Below, in pieces: positions 1 to 31,488 of a DNA stretch of 31,488 nucleotides. The notes below the pieces were generated by a model. That model was not told the DNA's origin and ran no database searches. It saw nothing but the letters and a program-made list of their open reading frames with translations. Each line of letters opens with the position of its first letter. Within the stretch, counting starts at the first letter, position 1. Both the position numbers and the translations under genes were made by a program. This DNA comes from a virus (taxonomy: Duplodnaviria; Heunggongvirae; Uroviricota; Caudoviricetes): IMG/VR virus record IMGVR_UViG_2778261316_000005; one strand, written 5' to 3'.

Positions 1-678
1 ATGTCAAAGACCACTTGCAGGAAATGTGGAAGCGAAGTAGAGCGAAAAGAGAAAAAATGCCCTTACTGTGCAGCAAAAAACCCAGGCATGAGATGGTGGA
101 AGCCGGTGATATTTATCATTGTCCTGGTCGCGCTACTCAAGGCTTGTTCGTACATACCTGATCCAGATCCGGCAAATCTTAGAAACAAAAATACCACCCT
201 CAAAGAATGGCGCAGCATGCTAAGAGATGACAGGTTGAAGTTTATTGATAGCTACCTTGCGCAAGAAAAAATCATCACCTCCGATACTGGTGGATTCTAT
301 AAATGCATCAGCCAGCACTCATATACGAAAAATGATGAGATTAAAGTTGATGAAGCTCTTGGCTGGTGTAAACAAGACTACCTTAAGAATCCCTCGGCTC
401 TATACCAGATGATTGATTTCGACAGATTTATCAGCAACACACGAAAATCTGACAGCTCTTACATCCCCATTACCAGGGATATAAAAAATAAGATGAACGA
501 CCCTTCATCATTCAAGCATCTTGAAACTAGCTATCGGTTTGTACTGGATAATTCAACACCGTATGCGATAGTCACCACGGTCTATCAAGGAAAAAATGCT
601 TACGGTGCGTCCGTCAAAAACTCGATAAAAGCCAAAGTTGACCTTTCCTCCGGCAGCGTAATTGAATATCTCAATTAA
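1..678 (+). CDS. hypothetical protein with N-terminal zinc ribbon (CxxC-x11-CxxC), one transmembrane helix and a ~170 aa C-terminal domain; AT-rich, probable cargo or host gene
   Basis: 225 aa ORF starting at nt 1 with ATG; MSKTTCRKCGSEVERKEKKCPYC followed by hydrophobic WWKPVIFIIVLVALL; GC roughly 40% versus mid-50s for the phage; followed by a hairpin terminator. Confidence 0.55.
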   Translation: MSKTTCRKCGSEVERKEKKCPYCAAKNPGMRWWKPVIFIIVLVALLKACSYIPDPDPANLRNKNTTLKEWRSMLRDDRLKFIDSYLAQEKIITSDTGGFYKCISQHSYTKNDEIKVDEALGWCKQDYLKNPSALYQMIDFDRFISNTRKSDSSYIPITRDIKNKMNDPSSFKHLETSYRFVLDNSTPYAIVTTVYQGKNAYGASVKNSIKAKVDLSSGSVIEYLN

Positions 679-7998: not shown

Positions 7999-8567
7999 TT
8001 AAGCCCCTTCATGTTCCCTTCTTGCTGAAGGGAACTTTTTATAAAGCGTCGACATTCCGACATCAAAAATAATAGCCACCCGCTGTCGTTTCTCCCCTGC
8101 GGCTATCAGTCTTCCCGCCTGTTCCCATTGCTGCTTTGTCAGTTTAGGTCGCCTCCCGCCTATCCTTCCTTCTGCGCGGGCAGCAACCAAACCGGTGCGG
8201 GTGCGCTCAACGATTAACTCTCTCTCCATTTCTGCCAGCGCCCCATGACGTGAAAGAAAAAGCGCCCCATAGGTGTTGAGGTATCAATGCTGTCTGTCAG
8301 GCTGCGGAAGTTAACACCGCGATTGCGTAGCTCTTCGATCATTGTCACCAGGTGTCGCATGCTCCGCCCGAGACGATCAAGCTTCCAGACAACCAGCGTA
8401 TCCCCCTCCGATAAGGTCCGTAATAAACGCTTAAGGCCCGGCCTTTCCGCTTTTGTTCCGCTTATTTTGTCTTCAAATATTTGTACACATCCTGCGCTTT
8501 CCAGTGCATTTCTTTGCAGCGCGGTGTTCTGGTCATTTGTTGACACCCTTACATAGCCGATCAGCAT
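7999..8567 (-). pseudogene. Hin/Gin/Pin/Cin-family serine DNA invertase, split by a 1-nt frameshift (or homopolymer sequencing error)
   Basis: The N-terminal ORF (8214-8567) has the catalytic motif YVRVSTNDQ and ...MGRFFFHVM; the C-terminal ORF (7999-8229) has the HTH domain ...ALAEMERELIVERTRTGL... in another frame. One base is missing in the run at 8241-8244; the joined product would be about 189 aa. Confidence 0.8.
8013..8040 (+). terminator. intrinsic terminator of the FI-U operon
   Basis: Stem GTTCCCTT / AAGGGAAC with a 7-nt loop followed by TTTTT, 22 nt after the U stop; it lies inside the 3' coding end of the minus-strand invertase. Confidence 0.6.
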
Positions 8568-8729: not shown

Positions 8730-9065
8730 ATGGGCGGAACCGGATATGCCATATTTCCGATGATGATTGGCGGTGCACGTAAGACTTTTATTATGCAATG
8801 GGGATTGCTGACGCCTCTGAAATCAGGTGGCTATGTGAATATTAACCTTCCTGTCGCTTTTCCTACTATGGTGATGCAGGCATATGCAACACATGATAAT
8901 GCGACACTAAACACACGCCCGACAGTATATGCAATTACTACAACAAGCCGAACCACTATCACTGCGACGGCGACGTGCTTAGATGCTGGCTCAGTGGGCG
9001 CTACAGTGACACGCAGTAGTGACGATACTGCGTGTTACGGTCGTTATTTTGCAATAGGGTGCTGA
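8730..9065 (+). CDS. alternative tail fibre C-terminal variable cassette (Sv'-like), silent in this orientation
   Basis: Reading frame is open back to the left gix-like site (…PANVGLGDISATGVATGSMGGTG…), with no start or promoter of its own; Gly/Thr-rich fibre-tip-like sequence; directly followed by an assembly gene. Confidence 0.55.
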   Translation: MGGTGYAIFPMMIGGARKTFIMQWGLLTPLKSGGYVNINLPVAFPTMVMQAYATHDNATLNTRPTVYAITTTSRTTITATATCLDAGSVGATVTRSSDDTACYGRYFAIGC

Positions 9066-9066
9066 A

Positions 9067-9510
9067 ATGAATCTTAAATATTTTTCTCCATCTGAAAATG
9101 CGTTTTATGCCGGGGAGCTTAAAGAAAGCTATATCGCTGCTGGCTCATGGCCTTCTGATGCCTCGGAGGTTGATGAAAGTCTTTATCTTGAGTTTATCGA
9201 TAAACCGCCAGCAGGTAAGTATCGAGGAGTGGATAATGCAGGAATGCCCTGCTGGCTTGAAATTCCTCCTCCCACAGTAGAGGAAATGGCATCGAATGCA
9301 GAGAATATAAGACAGCAGCTCATTGATAAGGCAAATGTTTATATAAACAATCGTCAGTGGCCGGGAAAAGCAGCGATAGGCCGTTTAAAGGCAGATGAAC
9401 TGGAACGATATAACCTTTGGCTGGATTATCTGGACGCACTGGAACTGGTCGATACTTCCGGTGCGCCAGATATTGAATGGCCTACGCCTCCGGCAGCTCA
9501 GGCCAGATGA
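9067..9510 (+). CDS. tail fibre assembly protein (alternative, U'-like)
   Basis: 147 aa; C-terminal ...DTSGAPDIEWPTPP motif shared with the other tfa (…TAPDVIWPELP); 3' ends of the two genes overlap convergently. Confidence 0.8.
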   Translation: MNLKYFSPSENAFYAGELKESYIAAGSWPSDASEVDESLYLEFIDKPPAGKYRGVDNAGMPCWLEIPPPTVEEMASNAENIRQQLIDKANVYINNRQWPGKAAIGRLKADELERYNLWLDYLDALELVDTSGAPDIEWPTPPAAQAR

Positions 9511-10084
9511 CATCCGGCGCGGTGCTGGTATCCGTTGCCGTCACCGCGTCAATGTAATCCAGCACAGCGTTTAATCGGGTGGTTTCTGTCTGCGTCAGCT
9601 TCCTCCCGGCCTGCAATTTCAGTTGAATCAGACTAATGGAAGCCATTGCAGTATCAATCAGTGACTGACGCTGTGCTTCTGCCGCGCTTACTGCGGCGCT
9701 ATGCTGTGCCTCAGTATCTGTCACCCATTTCTCACCATCCCATTTATCGTATGGCGTTAACGGGGCGATAGTGGTTGTATTTTCGGGGTAATCACCCAGA
9801 GCTGTGATTTCTTTGGCGTCTCCCGTTTCGGTGTTATAGACGATTTCACCGCGATGGTCTGGCACATATTCCCATGAGTTTAAATCTGCCGAACGGCAGA
9901 TTGCATAACCAGCCTTATGTATACCAGGTTCATCCAGACAGGAATATGCCGGGATACCAACACCAACGGCAAGATATTCATTTGAAGTGGAAATATATTC
10001 CCGAGTTTCACCATCATAGCTATAGACGGTAATATCCCCCGCCTTCGTGGCAATAAGCTCGCTATTTAATACAGCGTTATCCAT
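9482..10084 (-). CDS. G: tail fibre assembly protein gpG
   Basis: 200 aa immediately downstream of H (TAATG overlap); tfa-type C-terminal motif. Confidence 0.85.
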   Translation of the reverse strand: MDNAVLNSELIATKAGDITVYSYDGETREYISTSNEYLAVGVGIPAYSCLDEPGIHKAGYAICRSADLNSWEYVPDHRGEIVYNTETGDAKEITALGDYPENTTTIAPLTPYDKWDGEKWVTDTEAQHSAAVSAAEAQRQSLIDTAMASISLIQLKLQAGRKLTQTETTRLNAVLDYIDAVTATDTSTAPDVIWPELPEA

Positions 10085-21741: not shown

Positions 21742-22794
21742 TTGAGCAAACAAAGACCCACACGCGGCAGGAAGTATGCCAGGGAGCAGGCAGATCTCGC
21801 CGCCTCACTGAAAGCGTCACCGGAGCTGAACTCATTCACCTTCGACGGCCCATGGCCGGTGAGTGGTGCCAGCGACCTGCTTGATAACATGTATTGCGCA
21901 GACAACGGGCGATACTACGAAACCCCTATTGACTGGTATGGCCTCGCCCGTCAGTTTGGCTATGCGAGCTGGCACCAGTCGGCGCTTTATTTCAAGCGCA
22001 ATGTCCTTGCCGGATGCTTTATCCCGCACAAACTTCTTTCCCGCCAGGTGTTCTCCGCCTTCGCACTGGACTGGTTTGTCTTCGGGAATGGCTATCTTGA
22101 GATGCGAAAAAACTGGCTTGGTGGTTCCTTTGGCTTTCGTCACTCGCTGGCGAAATACACACGCCGTGGTTCTGACCTGGACACTTACTGGTTTATTCAG
22201 GCCGGGCTACAGGATCACATGTTTTCAACGGGTTCGGTATGTCACGTTCTCAGCCCGGATATTCACCAGGAAATATACGGCATGCCTGAGTATTTCGCTG
22301 GCCTGCTGTCTGCAAACCTGGCCCATTCTGCTGACAAGTTCAGAAAGCTCTACTACGACAACGGCTCGCACGCTGGCTGCATCGTCTACGTTAACAGCGC
22401 GATGGCCGACCAGGAGAGCCTTGATAAGCTCAAAAAGACGCTGACGGATACCCGGCGCGGCGGGGCGTTTAAGAACATCCTTCTGCACGCACCTAACGGC
22501 GGCAAAGACTCCGTGCAAATACTGCCATTCAGCCAGATATCGGCTAAGGATGAGTTTGTGGGGGTGAAGTCTTCCACCCGCGATGACATGCTGGCAGCGC
22601 ACCGGGTGCCGCCGCAACTGATGGGAGCCATTCCGGAAGGGAACGGTTCATTCGGTGATATTGAGAAAGCGGCTCGCGTGTTCGCCGTCAACGAGCTGAC
22701 ACCCTGTATGGAGGCCATGAAGCATGTTAACGACTGGCTGGGTGAGGAGGTGATTCGCTTCAACCCTTACGCATTGCTTGAACCCACGAAGTAA
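21742..22794 (+). CDS. Q: portal protein gpQ
   Basis: 350 aa directly downstream of P; probable TTG start 9 nt after GGAG. Confidence 0.9.
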   Translation: MSKQRPTRGRKYAREQADLAASLKASPELNSFTFDGPWPVSGASDLLDNMYCADNGRYYETPIDWYGLARQFGYASWHQSALYFKRNVLAGCFIPHKLLSRQVFSAFALDWFVFGNGYLEMRKNWLGGSFGFRHSLAKYTRRGSDLDTYWFIQAGLQDHMFSTGSVCHVLSPDIHQEIYGMPEYFAGLLSANLAHSADKFRKLYYDNGSHAGCIVYVNSAMADQESLDKLKKTLTDTRRGGAFKNILLHAPNGGKDSVQILPFSQISAKDEFVGVKSSTRDDMLAAHRVPPQLMGAIPEGNGSFGDIEKAARVFAVNELTPCMEAMKHVNDWLGEEVIRFNPYALLEPTK

Positions 22795-23027
22795 TCTCCT
22801 GGCCGCATCGTCATTTCTGGCGGTGCGGTACCACCCTCAGCACCATCATTTCCGGCCATATCGGCCACTCGCGAAACACAAATAAACCACACCCCCTACC
22901 AGACGCAGCCAGCGGGCTTCTGGCGCGACTTCTCTCGCGCTGCCGCTTCGCTCAACCATCAACATGAGCGCCCGACAGGCGGCGAATGGCGGATGATATG
23001 ACCCCCTGCCTGACCCCCTTTGCGCGC

Positions 23028-23047
23028 GCTTGCTCCCCCGCCTCGCC
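23028..23047. other. cos site (P2-type 19-nt cohesive end region), intact in the prophage
   Basis: Minus-strand reading GGCGAGGCGGGGGAGCAAGC closely resembles the P2 cohesive end GGCGAGGCGGGGAAAGCAC; located between Q and the early region as expected. Confidence 0.6.
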
Positions 23048-23066
23048 TGCGCGCTAAACCGACCTC

Positions 23067-23170
23067 TTTTTGTGCACTTTGTGCAGGCCGCCCAGGCCCC
23101 GCCAGCGCTGGGGCGGCATGGAAAAAACGTTGTTTCAAAAATTGTGCAAATTTGTGCAACTTTTTGCATC
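23067..23170. repeat. cos-proximal direct repeats of TTGTGCA (putative terminase recognition, cosB-like)
   Basis: Four to five copies (tttgtgcac, tttgtgcag, attgtgcaa, tttgtgcaa, ttttgcat) within about 100 bp next to cos; ACCCCCT-type repeats on the other side (22890-23020). Confidence 0.5.
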
Positions 23171-23185
23171 CGCGCGGCCCCATTT

Positions 23186-23422
23186 TTACACCTGATCAAC
23201 CTCGCCGAGCGCCACCATGATCGCCAGGCGTTCGGCAGGCGGTAACGCTGCAAATTTTTCCTTCCAGCGCTGCGCTTTTCGCTTAATTCGATAGCGATCA
23301 TTGTAATTTTTACCTGCAAAAGTATGCGGATAAGCGCGCCCCTCCTGGTAGTTCATCCAGATTTTCTCCGTCCTCACCCCGCCGCGCGTCATTGCCTGAA
23401 ATTCTTTGCTGCGCCAGCCCAC
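23186..23422 (-). CDS. hypothetical protein at the position of the P2 tin/old accessory locus
   Basis: 78 aa ORF between the A-linked small gene and cos; no recognisable family; basic. Confidence 0.4.
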   Translation of the reverse strand: MGWRSKEFQAMTRGGVRTEKIWMNYQEGRAYPHTFAGKNYNDRYRIKRKAQRWKEKFAALPPAERLAIMVALGEVDQV

Positions 23423-23495
23423 TAACGTTTCGTCATAAAGCTGCGACGGATAGCCAGAAAGGATAACGCTGACGTTCTCCGGCAGACCAGCGCCC

Positions 23496-23711
23496 TCACA
23501 GCTTCATCAGGTTTTTGATCACAATCCTGGTGACAAGGCTGTTGTTCTGCTTAGCTTTTTCCAGGATATAAGCGCAATGCTGGTCTTTAAGCTCATCTGG
23601 ATTGACACATTGCCCCGCCCCATGCTCAACGGTTACCGATCCATTGCCGTTATAAACAATGCGCCCTTCTGCGTCGTACCCTTCGAAGTAGCTGATATAA
23701 CTTGATTTCAT
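23496..23711 (-). CDS. hypothetical protein translationally coupled to the 3' end of gene A
   Basis: 71 aa; ATGA overlap with the A stop. Confidence 0.5.
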   Translation of the reverse strand: MKSSYISYFEGYDAEGRIVYNGNGSVTVEHGAGQCVNPDELKDQHCAYILEKAKQNNSLVTRIVIKNLMKL

Positions 23712-26749: not shown

Positions 26750-27714
26750 CAGAAAGGCTCCTGCGTTTCACAGCCCTTGGCAGGGTCGAAGCCTAAAAAC
26801 ATCTCGCCGTAAGTCGCATTCCCCATTACCGGCCCACAATCCGGGCAGCAACCACCGCCAGCACGATCGCAGCCATCACACACGCGAAGAACGCCAATAA
26901 CCTCGCCAGCCATATCGCGGCTTTTGGCGCTCACAGAGCGGCGGACACTCAGGGAGTGAAGGTTGAAGGCGGAATAAATTTCGCGAGTTTCAGGCGTGTC
27001 GCTGTTTGAGATGATCGAGCGGGTGGCGTACTGACGGTTAACAGCCACAAGAGCCGCTACCAGAGCGCGATGATCAACCAGGGTAAAGGGTTTGCCGTAA
27101 GCGGTGAAATTGGCGGTATCGCTCGCAGGAATATAGGGCGGGTCACAATAAATCACCGCGTCATGCGCGAGTTGCATAACGTCAGGGATAGATTGGCGGA
27201 AATCACTATGGATAAAGACCGCTTTTGTGTCGCTGGCCTTTTCGGCGAATAAGCGCATTTCCGCTTCAGGAAAGTAAGGCTCGGCATACTTACCGAATGG
27301 AACGTTGAATTCGCCCTTCCGGTTAACGCGATACAGACCGTTATAGCCATGGCGATTCAGATACAGGAAATACGCGGCATAAAGCATTGCTGCGTCCGGA
27401 TCAGAGTCAGCCTGGCGGGCCAGTGAATTGAACTCTGTGCGCCGTCTGTAGTATTCCTCCGCACTGTTTCCGCCTTTGAAAGCCCAGCGGCAGGCGGCAA
27501 TAGCGTCTTCTTTGCGGCCGGTTAATTGTCGGAAAAAATTAATCAGCGCGATATTGCTGTCGCAGAGAACGTAGCGGCGGTAATCCGTGTTCATAAACAC
27601 AGTTCCACTACCCACAAACGGCTCAATCAGACAATCCGCTTTCGGCAAATGCTTAAGCAGCTGCGGCATAACGCGGGTTTTTCCTCCCGCCCATTTGATT
27701 GGCGATCTGATCAT
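26749..27714 (-). CDS. dam: Dam-family DNA N6-adenine methyltransferase with a Cys-rich C-terminal extension
   Basis: …IKWAGGK…, …EPFVGSGTVF…, …LYLNRHGYNGLYRVNRKGEFNVPFGKY…, …YCDPPYIP… align with E. coli Dam; extra C-terminal tail with CDGC…CCPDC. Confidence 0.9.
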   Translation of the reverse strand: MIRSPIKWAGGKTRVMPQLLKHLPKADCLIEPFVGSGTVFMNTDYRRYVLCDSNIALINFFRQLTGRKEDAIAACRWAFKGGNSAEEYYRRRTEFNSLARQADSDPDAAMLYAAYFLYLNRHGYNGLYRVNRKGEFNVPFGKYAEPYFPEAEMRLFAEKASDTKAVFIHSDFRQSIPDVMQLAHDAVIYCDPPYIPASDTANFTAYGKPFTLVDHRALVAALVAVNRQYATRSIISNSDTPETREIYSAFNLHSLSVRRSVSAKSRDMAGEVIGVLRVCDGCDRAGGGCCPDCGPVMGNATYGEMFLGFDPAKGCETQEPF

Positions 27715-27950
27715 TTGCGAAACTCCTGGTTGTAGGTTTCATGGGTCATGAGTCGCCACTGAGCGCCGCCGTTTTTGCTAAGCAAGCGCCAGCGACGGCC
27801 AATGCGGATCACGAGATAGGCGTGCGGTTTGACGCGGGAGAAGTTGTGCTGACCACGTGAAAAACATTTCAGGGCGGCAATCGCCCTGGTGCATACAGGC
27901 AATGGCGCGCTGCAAACGATTGAAAGACGCGGATGCATGGTGGCCCTCAC
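27711..27950 (-). CDS. hypothetical protein (79 aa), coupled between the exonuclease-like gene and dam
   Basis: GTGA overlap with the upstream stop and ATGA overlap with the dam start; no recognisable family. Confidence 0.4.
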   Translation of the reverse strand: MRATMHPRLSIVCSAPLPVCTRAIAALKCFSRGQHNFSRVKPHAYLVIRIGRRWRLLSKNGGAQWRLMTHETYNQEFRK

Positions 27951-28495
27951 AATGTTTCAAGGTGAGGGGAGGTCAGACGTTGCCATATCTCGCAGGCTTG
28001 CTCGGCTTGATAGGCAGCATCGGTCAACATATAGGTAGCCGTTGACCTACGTGGATGGGGGGCATAACCGGTAACGCCTGCCAGCATGATCAGAGAGGCA
28101 AGGCAACGCAGTTTGAATGCGACGAATTGATGTCCCAAATCGTGCCTTCTTGCCGCATGGATTAACCACTGCGGCACTCGACCAGAGCCCACAGTCCAGC
28201 AATTCAACTCGGTATGCAGGGAAGCATTTTCGCGAATGAAGGAAAAAAGCCCCGCTACCGCATTAAGTTCAGTGCATGTCGCAGAGATAACCTCTGCTCT
28301 TTGATGGGCATCTCCTTTAAGCAGCTCCAGCACTGCTTCTGGATCGATATATTCAACAGTGCGAAGGTCTACAGCCCGATAATATTGCGGGCCTAACTTT
28401 CCTGTTGATGGCTCGAAGAAAACACACTCAATAGCAAAGATTGGCGAATCTGGCGCTTTCCCCAGCGCTCGAATATCTAACATGAAGTTATTCAT
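27947..28495 (-). CDS. putative DnaQ/DEDD-like 3'-5' exonuclease-fold protein (assignment tentative)
   Basis: 182 aa; N-terminal MLDIRALG… resembles the Exo I motif (D-x-E) but with Arg at the Glu position; H…D pair near the C-terminus. Confidence 0.5.
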   Translation of the reverse strand: MNNFMLDIRALGKAPDSPIFAIECVFFEPSTGKLGPQYYRAVDLRTVEYIDPEAVLELLKGDAHQRAEVISATCTELNAVAGLFSFIRENASLHTELNCWTVGSGRVPQWLIHAARRHDLGHQFVAFKLRCLASLIMLAGVTGYAPHPRRSTATYMLTDAAYQAEQACEIWQRLTSPHLETL

Positions 28496-28716
28496 TGTTT
28501 GTTATCCTCGTTAATGGTTAATTCGCGGCTTGCGATCCACCGCTCGACTGATGAATAAATCTCTTCTGGTGTGGCGCTTTCCTTTTTCAGCTGGCCGACA
28601 AAAATACGAAGCAACCCCAAAAGGTGGGCGCGTTCGTGTTTTCGTGCGTTGGTGCTTATCTCTACAAACTCCGGATCACTTATTTCGCCATCCAGCTTTA
28701 TTGACTTAACCGACAT
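28492..28716 (-). CDS. hypothetical early protein (74 aa)
   Basis: ATG at 28716 with AGGAGG RBS; ATGA overlap with the downstream exonuclease-like gene. Confidence 0.5.
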   Translation of the reverse strand: MSVKSIKLDGEISDPEFVEISTNARKHERAHLLGLLRIFVGQLKKESATPEEIYSSVERWIASRELTINEDNKQ

Positions 28717-28783
28717 GCAACCTCCTGAAAAAGGCAAAACGAATCCCCGGCAAAATAAATGCCGTTAATTTAAGCCTGCTTAA

Positions 28784-29056
28784 TTAGTGGTTAGGGCGAG
28801 GTTTTCTTTTAACCTGTTTAAACAACCTTTCGTGCCAGTAATAAAGAAAATCAATAAAGGTCATTCGCGCACGCTCGTGATTACCTCGGATTGTTTTCTC
28901 CAGCCCGTAAATAATCAGATCAATAGACGGGCTATCTGGTGCAATGATAATGCGATTTCCGTTTTTCAAAATTACTGTAAAACCCTGCTCCGCATTTTCT
29001 ACCGCCTCGCGGATCAGCATTTCCCGTTCCCACGATGTTTTCTCTTCAGTAAACAT
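28784..29056 (-). CDS. hypothetical protein (90 aa) in the AT-rich islet
   Basis: ORF in an AT-rich stretch of the early operon; no recognisable family. Confidence 0.5.
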   Translation of the reverse strand: MFTEEKTSWEREMLIREAVENAEQGFTVILKNGNRIIIAPDSPSIDLIIYGLEKTIRGNHERARMTFIDFLYYWHERLFKQVKRKPRPNH

Positions 29057-29073
29057 GTAAGCCCCTTTTCTTG

Positions 29074-29301
29074 TTACAAGAGTTTTTTAAATGCTCTTGC
29101 CAGGGTAGCCAGCACGCCTTTATTTATCTTTTTTGTATAAATAAAAGGTTTGCTCATTTCCTTAACAAAACGAACCTTATTAGGCTCCGGCTTAAAGAAA
29201 CGCCCGTCCGGGCATTCAACCCAGCCCCGCGTATTACGGTAGTGTGTAACCTGACAACCATTTTTCAGGAGGCTTGCAAGTGATGGGATCTCTTCGTTCA
29301 T
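29074..29301 (-). CDS. hypothetical protein (75 aa) in the AT-rich islet
   Basis: Tightly spaced with its neighbours (17 and 12 bp gaps); Lys-rich. Confidence 0.5.
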   Translation of the reverse strand: MNEEIPSLASLLKNGCQVTHYRNTRGWVECPDGRFFKPEPNKVRFVKEMSKPFIYTKKINKGVLATLARAFKKLL

Positions 29302-29313
29302 ATCGTATACCTG

Positions 29314-29496
29314 TTAAAGTTGCCCGCGTGCTTTGCGCTCTACTTCTTCCCGGCGCGCTTTAAATTCTGATAAGGCTTTTTCTCTTTTCTGCCTAACTTT
29401 CTTGCAGTGCAACCTGATTAAAAGCTGAATCAGGCTTATTACTGCGATAGAAAAAATTAAGAGCCCAACAATCATTTCAAGCTTCATATTTTTCAC
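29314..29496 (-). CDS. small single-pass membrane protein (60 aa) in the AT-rich islet
   Basis: Hydrophobic helix MIVGLLIFSIAVISLIQLLI followed by a highly charged Lys/Arg/Glu tail. Confidence 0.4.
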   Translation of the reverse strand: MKNMKLEMIVGLLIFSIAVISLIQLLIRLHCKKVRQKREKALSEFKARREEVERKARGQL

Positions 29497-29692
29497 CGCG
29501 CTTTAATCTATCAATGGTCACCATTGCCTCTGCAAACGCAAAATCAATACCGAAATAGCAGCCGCCGTGCGTAATCTGATATCGCTGGCGGCTGTATGGT
29601 TTTTTGCGTGGGAGTTTCAGAATGGTAAAGCCACGGTAAAGGCTGGTTTTACTATTCAGCTGCGTCACCGCTCCGCCAAATCCACTTTTCAT
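29477..29692 (-). CDS. hypothetical early protein (71 aa) downstream of cox
   Basis: ATG at 29692 with strong RBS AGGGAGGGGGAAC; position corresponds to P2 orf78/B. Confidence 0.45.
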   Translation of the reverse strand: MKSGFGGAVTQLNSKTSLYRGFTILKLPRKKPYSRQRYQITHGGCYFGIDFAFAEAMVTIDRLKRGEKYEA

Positions 29693-29718
29693 GTTCCCCC
29701 TCCCTGAAGCGGTTCGCA

Positions 29719-29991
29719 TTAAAGCCCCATCCACAACAACCAGGCATCACGCTGTTCTACCGGGCGGTTGTAATACGCCTCACGCACAGCACGATTGAAC
29801 TCAGGGATGTAAACCCAGCGCTCACCGGCGCGTGCGTTCGGTTTGGTTGGGTCGCGCAGTTCAATCACTGGCAGCTTTCGGGCTTTGATCATTTCTTCTA
29901 CTGCGGTCTTAGGTTTGCCGATCAGCTCGGCGAACTTCTCCACATGGACAGCATCAAGCGGATATTTGATTGCGTAATCGCTCGCTTCCAT
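29719..29991 (-). CDS. cox: Cox-like excisionase / early transcriptional regulator
   Basis: …EKFAELIGKPKTAVEEMIKARKLPVIEL…RAGERWVYIPEFN…WLLWMGL matches P2 Cox; first gene of the early operon, divergent from C. Confidence 0.8.
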   Translation of the reverse strand: MEASDYAIKYPLDAVHVEKFAELIGKPKTAVEEMIKARKLPVIELRDPTKPNARAGERWVYIPEFNRAVREAYYNRPVEQRDAWLLWMGL

Positions 29992-30129
29992 CGTTCACGC
30001 TCCTGTTAGCTCGTGTTAATCTCGTAAGATCCAGCCCTTTCTAAACCGTTTGAAAACGTTCTAGCGGCTGGTTTACGCACCTGAAAAGGTCACTAACTAC
30101 AAACCTTTTGCGAGAATATAGTCACTAAC
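29992..30129. promoter_or_regulatory. immunity switch region (divergent Pe/Pc-type promoters and operators) between cox and C
   Basis: 138-bp intergenic region between divergent cox and C; direct repeat GTCACTAAC at 30089-30097 and 30121-30129; imperfect inverted repeat CGTTTGAAAACG. Confidence 0.5.
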
Positions 30130-30438
30130 ATGCAACCAAGTCAAATGAAAATGGGACAAAAACTAAGAGCGATCAGGAAAGCTGAAGGGGTAACCCAAGC
30201 AAAATTCAGTGAAATCACTGGTATAGCTCTAGGCACAGTAAAAAATTACGAAGGAGGTCACTCAGATCCTGGGATTCAAATCGTTTTGCAGGTAACCAAC
30301 ACACCTCAACTACAGAAATACACGCTATGGCTGATGACTGACAAAACCTCCCCGCAGGCTGGTCAGATTGCACCGGCCCTCGCGCACATTGGGCCAGACT
30401 CGCCGGAATCAGACCAATCCGAGAAACAGACTGGCTAA
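30130..30438 (+). CDS. C: C-type immunity repressor (HTH)
   Basis: …QLQKYTLWLMTDKTSPQAGQIAPALAHIG… matches P2 C (…QFTKYTLWFMTNQIAPESGQIAPALAHFG…). Confidence 0.85.
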   Translation: MQPSQMKMGQKLRAIRKAEGVTQAKFSEITGIALGTVKNYEGGHSDPGIQIVLQVTNTPQLQKYTLWLMTDKTSPQAGQIAPALAHIGPDSPESDQSEKQTG

Positions 30439-30507
30439 CAGTTTATAAACATTACATTTTCACTATTTGTTACCAAGATAGTGATATCTGCGCCGGAGGG
30501 CTTTCTT

Positions 30508-31488
30508 ATGTCGATTAAGAAGCTCGATGATGGTCGCTACATGGTGGACATTAGACCGCGCGGGGCAGCAGGACGCCGCATCCGCAAGACGTTTGACAGA
30601 AAGGCAGAAGCTACCGCGTTTGAGCAATACACGATAGCGAACGCCAGCCAAAAAGAATGGGCTGGTAAGCGCGCCGACCGGCGGCCTTTAAGTGAGTTGC
30701 TCGATGCCTGGTGGCGGTATCACGGGCAAAACCATGAAAACGGCAAAAAGGAATTCAATCACCTTTTGAAAACAATAAGTGGCCTCGGCGATCCCGCCGT
30801 TAGCCGGTTAAGCAAAAGGGATTTAATGGATTACCGCTCAAGCCGTTTGAATGCCGGGATCAAGGCATCAACGATTAATCGCGAGATGTACCGATTATCC
30901 GGCATGTTTACGAAGTTAATACAGATAGAGGAATTTAGCGGGCAACACCCTGTTAACGGGCTTCCACCACTGGCGGAAGAAAACCCGGAAATGACATTCC
31001 TGGAGCGGGAAGAGATCAACAGTTTGCTGAGCGTGCTGGAGGGGGATTATCTGTTAGTTGCCCTACTGTGCCTGAGCACCGGCGGAAGATGGTCAGAGGT
31101 CGCCACGCTTAAGCGGTCGAATATCGTTAACTGCCGCGTCACGTTCCTGAAGACCAAGAACGGGAAAAAGCGAACGGTGCCGATCTCTGAAGAGCTGGAA
31201 AACAAGGTGAAAAAAGAGGCCAGCGGGAAGCTGTTCAAAGTGGATTATGAAAGGTTCTGCAAGATACTGCGGGCGGTGAAGCCGGATATTCCGGAAAACC
31301 AGGCAACGCACATCCTGCGACACACCTTTGCAAGCCATTTCATGATGAACGGCGGGAATATTATCGCACTGCAACAGATCCTGGGGCATGCGAATATTCA
31401 GCAAACGATGGTCTATGCGCACCTGTCGCCTGACTACCTGCAAAACGCGGTTACACTGAATCCATTGCAGGGAGGAATTGCGGCATAA
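30508..31488 (+). CDS. int: tyrosine integrase (P2 Int family)
   Basis: MSIKKLDDGRYMVDIRP… versus P2 Int MAIKKLDDGRYEVDIRP…; C-terminal catalytic region …ATHILRHTFASHFMMNGGNIIALQQILGHANIQQTMVYAHLSPDYL…; GGAGGG RBS; stop codon at the window end. Confidence 0.9.
   Translation: MSIKKLDDGRYMVDIRPRGAAGRRIRKTFDRKAEATAFEQYTIANASQKEWAGKRADRRPLSELLDAWWRYHGQNHENGKKEFNHLLKTISGLGDPAVSRLSKRDLMDYRSSRLNAGIKASTINREMYRLSGMFTKLIQIEEFSGQHPVNGLPPLAEENPEMTFLEREEINSLLSVLEGDYLLVALLCLSTGGRWSEVATLKRSNIVNCRVTFLKTKNGKKRTVPISEELENKVKKEASGKLFKVDYERFCKILRAVKPDIPENQATHILRHTFASHFMMNGGNIIALQQILGHANIQQTMVYAHLSPDYLQNAVTLNPLQGGIAA

Follow-up and report, generated by a model that had tools for sequence, protein, structure and literature searches.

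A Fil-family gene and its candidate companions among the early genes of a P2/186-family prophage

The Fil-family gene and the early operon

The window analysed here, by which we mean the whole 31,488-nucleotide (nt) stretch of the viral record IMGVR_UViG_2778261316_000005, is a prophage of the P2/186 family (Peduoviridae), encoding the GPD baseplate hub, the tail sheath, the tape measure and the GPA replication endonuclease. The segment under study, 28738–29500, had been singled out in an earlier reading of the letters (the original prediction) as an AT-rich islet of three tightly packed small genes inside the early operon. These three minus-strand genes are real, with products of 57–60, 75 and 90 amino acid (aa) residues, referred to here as TM57, the Fil homologue and orf90, respectively. 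Comparison with orthologues in related loci, to which all substitution rates below refer, gave ratios of nonsynonymous to synonymous rates (dN/dS) of 0.11 for TM57, 0.10 for the Fil homologue and 0.045 for orf90, indicating purifying selection on all three.

The original prediction held that none of the three proteins resembled anything recognisable. This does not apply to the 75-aa product, which on profile evidence is a member of the Phage_186_Fil family. It scores 70.6 bits against PF10893 (gathering score 25; E = 9e-20) and matches phrog_816, labelled 'cell division inhibitor' (E = 2.6e-21), and its orthologue is named 'phage filamentation protein Fil family protein' in RefSeq. All 65 clusters of its homologues, which are spread across Enterobacterales, carry PF10893. 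Direct BLASTP comparison with Fil of phage 186 gave 31% identity over 49 residues (E = 6e-6), with the motifs PSxASLL and GWxxxxDG common to both proteins, and comparison of the homologue's profile with 186 Fil gave a probability of 88.5%. The protein consists of an N-terminal Fil domain followed by a C-terminal amphipathic helix (residues 61–74, hydrophobic moment 0.72), which is the sole confident part of an otherwise poor AlphaFold2 (AF2) model (predicted local distance difference test score, pLDDT, 58); 186 Fil likewise ends in a hydrophobic, basic segment. A profile search of the PDB with the Fil homologue returned no match.

The position of the gene is that of other family members, which lie in the early lytic operon just past the switch genes: fil stands directly after cox, apl-cII or a DUF4761 gene in phages 186, phiT5282H, SEN5 and SI7. 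The annotation of the 186 record states that overexpression of fil blocks cell division, and by homology to 186 Fil the protein encoded in the window is expected to do the same to its host. Small early or host-takeover division inhibitors that cause filamentation on expression are familiar from other phages and prophages, such as lambda Kil, Rac KilR, Qin DicB, T7 Gp0.4 and SPO1 Gp56, the last of which is a bitopic membrane protein, like TM57. No sequence similarity between the window genes and any of these five proteins was found in the Pfam and PHROG searches.

The features of the early operon and of the right end of the window are collected in Table 1. The minus-strand operon runs in the order cox, DUF4761, TM57, Fil, orf90, orf74, exonuclease, ParE-like gene, Dam and then A. 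The genes are closely packed, with an overlap of 11 nt between DUF4761 and TM57 and gaps of 12 nt between TM57 and Fil and of 17 nt between Fil and orf90.

Table 1. Coordinates of the early-operon genes and of the switch region at the right end of the window
Feature	Position	Strand	Remarks
Integrase	30481-31488	+	right end of window
C-type helix-turn-helix repressor	30130-30438	+	right end of window
Sigma-70-like early promoter, TTGACT-18-TATATT	30115..30144	-	upstream of cox, facing the repressor gene; consensus match only
cox	29719..29991	-	first gene of early operon; PF10743, E = 1.5e-26
DUF4761-family gene	29477..29734	-	PF15958, E = 2.3e-5, 24.9 bits, slightly under the 27-bit cut-off; phrog_2492, E = 7.5e-26; RefSeq start at ATG 29692, giving 71 aa
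TM57	29314..29496	-	60 aa from GTG 29496, or 57 aa from ATG 29487 (RefSeq call in a 99.3% identical E. coli prophage)
Fil homologue, Phage_186_Fil family	29074..29301	-	75 aa; PF10893, phrog_816
orf90	28784..29056	-	90 aa; first gene of the orf90-orf74 pair; phrog_12038, E = 1.3e-55 (no functional annotation)
orf74	28492..28737	-	74 aa from ATG 28716 (RefSeq), 81 aa from TTG; phrog_12723, E = 2.1e-40
Exonuclease, 3'-5', Rv2179c-like	27947..28495	-	downstream of orf74; PF16473, E = 3.2e-17

Placement inside the early operon, as originally proposed, is borne out both by this gene order and by the promoter scan, in which the site before cox was the sole minus-strand promoter-like site upstream of TM57, Fil and orf90, with none inside the islet. 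The promoter, terminator or flanking repeats of its own that might be expected of an islet or moron cassette were likewise not found. The terminator scan returned 10 terminator-like sites against about 3 expected, all with short weak stems and none convincing; the repeat scan gave only short chance repeats, none of them at the islet borders, and flanking mobility genes were not found either. A scan of 27500–30600 against Rfam produced a chance microRNA match only.

The IMG/VR contig UViG_2534682222_000020 is 100% identical over nearly all of it (99% in the exonuclease), and the E. coli chromosome PCP06171 holds it at 99.3% identity, adjoining cpxP, with a RefSeq annotation that agrees on the gene set. 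The nearest deposited phages are P2-like phages of Klebsiella, at about 78% identity. In E. coli the sequence is rare, since among 5,426 complete genomes 13 gave any match to 28400–29800 and two covered it. A scan of genome contigs anchored on the exonuclease recovered two loci only.

Further down the operon lies a lone gene with a ParE-like toxin domain (27711–27950, minus strand; PF24732, E = 1e-18), the end of which overlaps the start of Dam. No antitoxin-like partner is evident. Only some half of the related loci have this gene, which is under purifying selection (dN/dS about 0.08–0.10).

TM57, slot content and base composition

TM57 contains a single strongly hydrophobic segment at residues ~5–25 (Kyte-Doolittle 19-mer mean 2.8) and a highly basic C-terminal tail (net charge +8, isoelectric point 10.7). 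It is predicted to be a single-pass (bitopic) inner-membrane protein with an N-terminal transmembrane helix and, following the positive-inside rule, a cytoplasmic tail, which agrees with the single-pass membrane protein originally proposed. The protein matches phrog_19198 (E = 4.7e-22), a family without functional annotation, and its homologues form 33 clusters, all from Enterobacteriaceae and all labelled 'hypothetical'. Searching deposited phages with TM57 by tblastn gave zero matches, probably owing to the low-complexity filter. Weak NCBIfam matches to pseudopilins (E > 0.004, far under the cut-offs) reflect the hydrophobic helix only, and this assignment was rejected.

The genomic context of TM57 is uniform. 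In 22 viral loci and six genomic places it stands directly upstream of Fil, at a distance of 12–16 nt, and none of these 28 loci has TM57 without Fil. TM57 is an optional companion of Fil and would most likely either modulate or localise the effect of Fil at the inner membrane or contribute a second envelope-directed function. A different reading, in which TM57 acts independently of Fil, either in membrane-level exclusion or an injection block or as a second division or envelope inhibitor in its own right, would suit a protein that spans the membrane once and has a basic tail, and Fil functions without TM57 in many phages. We nevertheless regard this reading as quite unlikely, given the constant association with Fil just described and given that a repressed early operon is a poor place for an exclusion function that has to be expressed in the lysogen.

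For the inheritance of the three genes, 80 viral contigs were anchored on orf90 and all neighbouring genes were mapped. Orf74 follows orf90 and the DUF4761 gene lies upstream in 80 of 80 loci, while the slot between DUF4761 and orf90 varies: it is occupied by DUF4754-like genes in 45 loci and by Fil in the other 35, accompanied by TM57 in 22 of these and on its own in 13. The suggested comparison of presence and absence across relatives thus shows part of the stretch to be variable, with TM57 in 22 and Fil in 35 of the 80 loci that share orf90. Fil also occurs without TM57 in 186, phiT5282H, SEN4/5 and SI7. Conversely, a diverged TM57 is found in prophages of Citrobacter and Enterobacter genomes in the order cox, DUF4761, TM57, Fil, TerB-like, DUF3927 (TciB-like), a 130-aa gene and Dam; these TM57-Fil prophages are without orf90, orf74 and the exonuclease.

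Several genes found in or near the slot in relatives deserve description in their own right. The DUF4754-like genes (phrog_2549) have products of 79 aa or, where the C terminus is extended, of 128 aa, and are mutually exclusive with Fil in the 80 anchored loci; they were located at L004:2351-2737, L005:3331-3708 and L006:2759-2998 and in 45 of loci L014-L093 (locus numbers of this analysis). A conserved 73-aa open reading frame (ORF; MWLQMSLIGAHQLSQ...), absent from the window, lies between Fil and orf90 in nine of the anchored contigs and also occurs in E. coli C 236-04A (L002:3667-3885, minus strand; a further example is L017:3772-3990), where RefSeq has an unannotated gap of 213 nt; neither Pfam nor PHROG gave a match for it. 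The pair that follows Fil in Citrobacter and Enterobacter (L097:3501-4114, also in L098-L101) consists of a TerB-domain protein of phrog_632 and a DUF3927 membrane protein of phrog_1470, a family labelled 'TciB-like inhibition of cell division or resistance to colicin', and thus adds another pair related to division or the envelope at this point of the early operon.

The content of the slot is decoupled from its flanks. In L042, L043 and L062 the integrase and cox are 96–99% identical to those of the window, yet the slot holds the DUF4754 allele, whereas in L010 and L015, where the integrase is 39% identical and homologues of cox and the repressor were undetected, TM57, Fil, orf90 and orf74 are 89–99% identical. 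Such exchange at gene boundaries is the mosaicism common in temperate phages. Orf90 is always accompanied by orf74, whereas TM57 and Fil come and go and are also found together where orf90 is absent. The three genes therefore do not form one inherited unit; orf90 belongs to a distinct and more stable orf90-orf74 unit.

The low G+C content (GC) noted originally is a real property of the stretch. It amounts to 42.1% for 28738–29500 against 53.5% for the whole window, and among sliding windows of 763 nt (mean 53.7%, standard deviation, sd, 3.6%) the segment is 3.2 sd below the mean, with only 0.26% equally low; it is essentially the lowest in the window, the minimum of 41.3% falling in the 763-nt window that starts at 28752. 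The description of an islet between the cox-proximal and exonuclease genes stands as to the dip and the genes, and fails as to the borders, since the AT-rich zone extends from about 28150 to 29650, taking in DUF4761, orf74 and the 5' portion of the exonuclease gene, and since orf74 also lies before the exonuclease. Gene by gene, the GC is 48.4% in DUF4761, 40% in TM57, 43% in Fil, 42% in orf90, 46.3% in orf74 and 50% in the exonuclease.

Relatives show the same pattern. In phage 186, dhr (40.3%), CP83 (39.5%) and CP82 (42.2%) contrast with A (51.8%); in phiT5282H, DUF4761, fil (43%) and the post-fil gene lie at 43–45% against 54% for dam; and orf90 has a GC of 40–49% in its 80 relatives, where the locus means are 49–52%. 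Small early genes that are not essential are typically AT-rich in this phage family, and since the homologous early genes of 186 and its relatives share the low GC, such a composition does not specifically point to a recent insertion of three genes. As a side observation, a second AT-rich stretch lies at 1–1100, next to the GPD gene, where 763-nt windows fall to 42.5% GC. It contains an ORF of 225 aa (1–678, plus strand) that starts at the first base of the window and may extend upstream of it; this ORF, for which Pfam gave no match, could represent a moron located at the end of the prophage.

These results bear directly on the explanation offered originally, namely that the three genes form a horizontally acquired cassette with an anti-defence, anti-restriction, toxin or superinfection-exclusion function. 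The GC dip, the small size and early expression of the genes, the absence of an assigned function for orf90 and TM57, and a DUF4761-orf90 slot with at least four alternative contents, as in accessory hot-spots, all speak for it. However, the genes are not inherited together, the middle one is Fil, the homologous early genes of 186 and relatives have the same low GC, and orf90 is old and constrained (dN/dS as above, with a synonymous rate, dS, of about 1.5); repeats and mobility genes are missing from the flanks. An anti-defence or anti-restriction role found no counterpart in Pfam, NCBIfam, PHROGs, PADLOC, PDB sequences or fold searches; for TM57 and orf90 in particular, Pfam, NCBIfam and PHROGs gave no defence or anti-defence family and PADLOC none either, no dedicated anti-defence library being among those searched. 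The obvious anti-restriction candidates stand further down the operon, in the form of Dam and, in relatives, cytosine methyltransferases. We therefore consider an acquired cassette of this kind very unlikely. The accessory character proposed for the genes is supported, and they are host-directed as opposed to replication genes.

The orf90–orf74 pair and the weak similarity of orf90 to Dhr

Homologues of orf90 form 77 clusters, all at least 67% identical, with Klebsiella and Raoultella species as the named sources. An exhaustive hidden Markov model search of 1.84e9 representatives returned one full-length cluster at the 50% identity level and no relatives beyond it. Since dS is saturated while the nonsynonymous rate (dN) is 0.07, orf90 is an old, constrained resident of its clade. 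Its AF2 model (pLDDT 68) has an alpha-beta-beta-alpha-alpha topology, for which fold searches and PDB searches were without match, a PDB profile search giving designed helical repeats only (E > 0.2). The partner gene, orf74 (dN/dS 0.19), lies between orf90 and the exonuclease, its stop overlapping the exonuclease start.

In phage 186, fil is followed by dhr, which the record describes with the words 'inhibits host DNA replication'. Orf90, which begins 17 nt after the Fil homologue, occupies the same position, except that the 73-aa gene intervenes in nine relatives. The arrangement is not peculiar to 186. The 70-aa post-Fil genes of phiT5282H and SEN5 gave hhalign probabilities of 84% and 71%, respectively, against Dhr and a profile-profile probability of 90.6%, and on this evidence they are Dhr relatives, so that the order Fil-then-Dhr is repeated in different genera.

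Comparison of the orf90 profile with 186-type Dhr in hhalign gave a local score of 23.5 with a probability of 25% (P = 8e-4), and with a combined Dhr profile the probability was 34%, P being about 4–8e-4 across both Dhr comparisons. The score of 23.5 lies above the maxima obtained with 500 column-shuffled Dhr alignments (19.7; mean 11.3, sd 2.5) and with 89 further window ORFs taken as controls (16.3). The matched region comprises a helix end and a hairpin with the pattern E-x-G-F-x-[IV]-x-x-[KR]-[ND]-G-x-x-[IL]-x-[IV]-x-P. A colinear C-terminal motif, KQ[LV]K[SR]KP, was found independently by BLASTP (LFKQVKRKP in orf90, IIKQLKSKP in Dhr), although direct BLASTP of orf90 against 186 Dhr was not significant alone. 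In a global alignment the surplus of about 22 residues in orf90 falls after the hairpin motif and before the C-terminal one. Taken together, these data make homology between orf90 and Dhr a serious possibility, with the balance tilting somewhat against it, and orf90 is tentatively described as a divergent, enlarged Dhr-type host-takeover protein.

The main competitor is that orf90 is not Dhr-like and instead serves with orf74 and the exonuclease as a clade-specific accessory factor of DNA metabolism or recombination. The strict co-inheritance of orf90 and orf74 in all 80 loci, the overlap of orf74 with the exonuclease start and the weakness of the similarity to Dhr would be expected on this account, and the equivalent block of 186 (CP80-CP83) surrounds an exonuclease. 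The exonuclease itself, however, is swapped for types 42–44% or 63–68% identical to that of the window, or is absent, while orf90 and orf74 remain, so that the pair is not tied to one exonuclease; moreover, the similarity of orf90 to Dhr exceeds that of the controls and orf90 stands where dhr does. On these grounds a DNA-metabolism role seems to us rather unlikely.

The probable fil region in comparison, and other parts of the window

The closest known system is found in coliphage 186 (Eganvirus, Peduoviridae), a member of the same virus family, where fil and dhr form a segment of the corresponding early (pR) operon. In both, the fil segment comes shortly after a cox/apl switch gene and before gene A and a non-essential block that includes an exonuclease gene, and the likeness extends to Fil homology, AT-rich composition and a small gene directly after fil. 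Unlike 186, the window has no cII, DUF4761 standing in its place, carries an extra membrane-protein gene upstream of fil, and lacks a clear tR1-like terminator after the post-fil gene, which itself encodes 90 aa as against the 66 aa of Dhr and is only marginally similar to it. Enterobacter phage phiT5282H and Salmonella phages SEN4 and SEN5 have the early order cox, a hypothetical gene, DUF4761, Fil, a 70-aa Dhr relative and Dam. They share with the window the succession of DUF4761 and Fil with the same style of 11-nt overlap, a Fil that is 69% identical, and a small post-Fil gene, but they lack TM57, orf90, orf74 and the exonuclease. Their post-Fil gene can be recognised as related to Dhr, but comparing orf90 with this branch by itself gave no significant result.

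From the gene order, the family assignment and the comparative data, we consider it probable that the stretch represents the 'fil region' that P2/186-family phages have in their early lytic operon, in which the Fil homologue would block division, TM57 would be its companion and orf90 would tentatively be of the Dhr type. The early promoter upstream of cox would transcribe the region when the C-type repressor is absent, that is, upon infection or induction, and the region would be silent in the lysogen, a timing suggested by the operon layout and by what is established for P2 and 186. The Fil homologue would then block host cell division, as expected from 186 Fil, and orf90 might act on host replication as Dhr does, for which the indications are weaker. 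The most likely role of the region is early host takeover, comprising a division block and possibly a block of host replication too.

Several observations weigh against this interpretation. The identity of the Fil homologue to 186 Fil is low and confined to the N-terminal 49 residues, and no account of the molecular target of 186 Fil, or of that of Dhr, was found in the searchable literature; literature searches found no mechanistic work on Fil, Dhr, DUF4761, DUF2724 or DUF4754. The role proposed for TM57 derives solely from gene adjacency. The link between orf90 and Dhr is weak, with hhalign probabilities of only 25–34% and of 0.7%, amounting to no signal, against the phiT5282H-type branch alone; orf90 is 20–24 residues longer than Dhr proteins (66–70 aa) and so departs from them in size and architecture, and no structural or sequence homologue that would give it a function was found.

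A more far-reaching proposal takes the DUF4761-orf90 interval to be an accessory hot-spot of Klebsiella/Enterobacter-type P2-like phages, filled by mutually exclusive host-takeover cassettes (TM57 with Fil, Fil, Fil with the 73-aa gene, or DUF4754-like genes). TM57 and Fil would here form a two-part membrane-anchored module for the division block, and orf90 would represent either a new, enlarged branch of Dhr or an unrecognised anti-defence protein. We rate this fuller version as unlikely and prefer the fil-region interpretation given above.

The gain is mostly one of annotation, in that the 75-aa gene can be named as Fil family and the supposed islet becomes the normal fil region of this phage family. 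Two modest leads accompany it: a membrane protein seen only with Fil, and a 90-aa orphan under tight constraint that stands where dhr does in 186. The comparative set, in which Fil with and without TM57 and Dhr and orf90 can be set side by side, could inform how P2/186-like phages arrest host division and replication.

Two other parts of the window attracted attention. An ORF of 117 aa at 8214–8567 (minus strand) encodes a resolvase/invertase N-terminal domain only. Beside it are a tail-fibre C-terminal gene (8730–9065, plus strand) and two opposed tail-fibre-assembly genes (9067–9510, plus strand; 9482–10084, minus strand), between which lies an imperfect 32-nt inverted repeat (9406–9437 and 9546–9577, 72%). 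The segment 8214–10084 resembles the invertible host-range segments of the Gin/Cin type, and its invertase may be truncated. The second is the region 22846–23700, which holds a 157-aa ORF (22846–23319, minus strand) without Pfam match and about 390 nt of flanking DNA, between the gene at 21742–22794, which by position would belong to the capsid/portal module, and gene A. In P2 this position is that of the tin/old accessory hot-spot, and the region could hold a defence-type moron.

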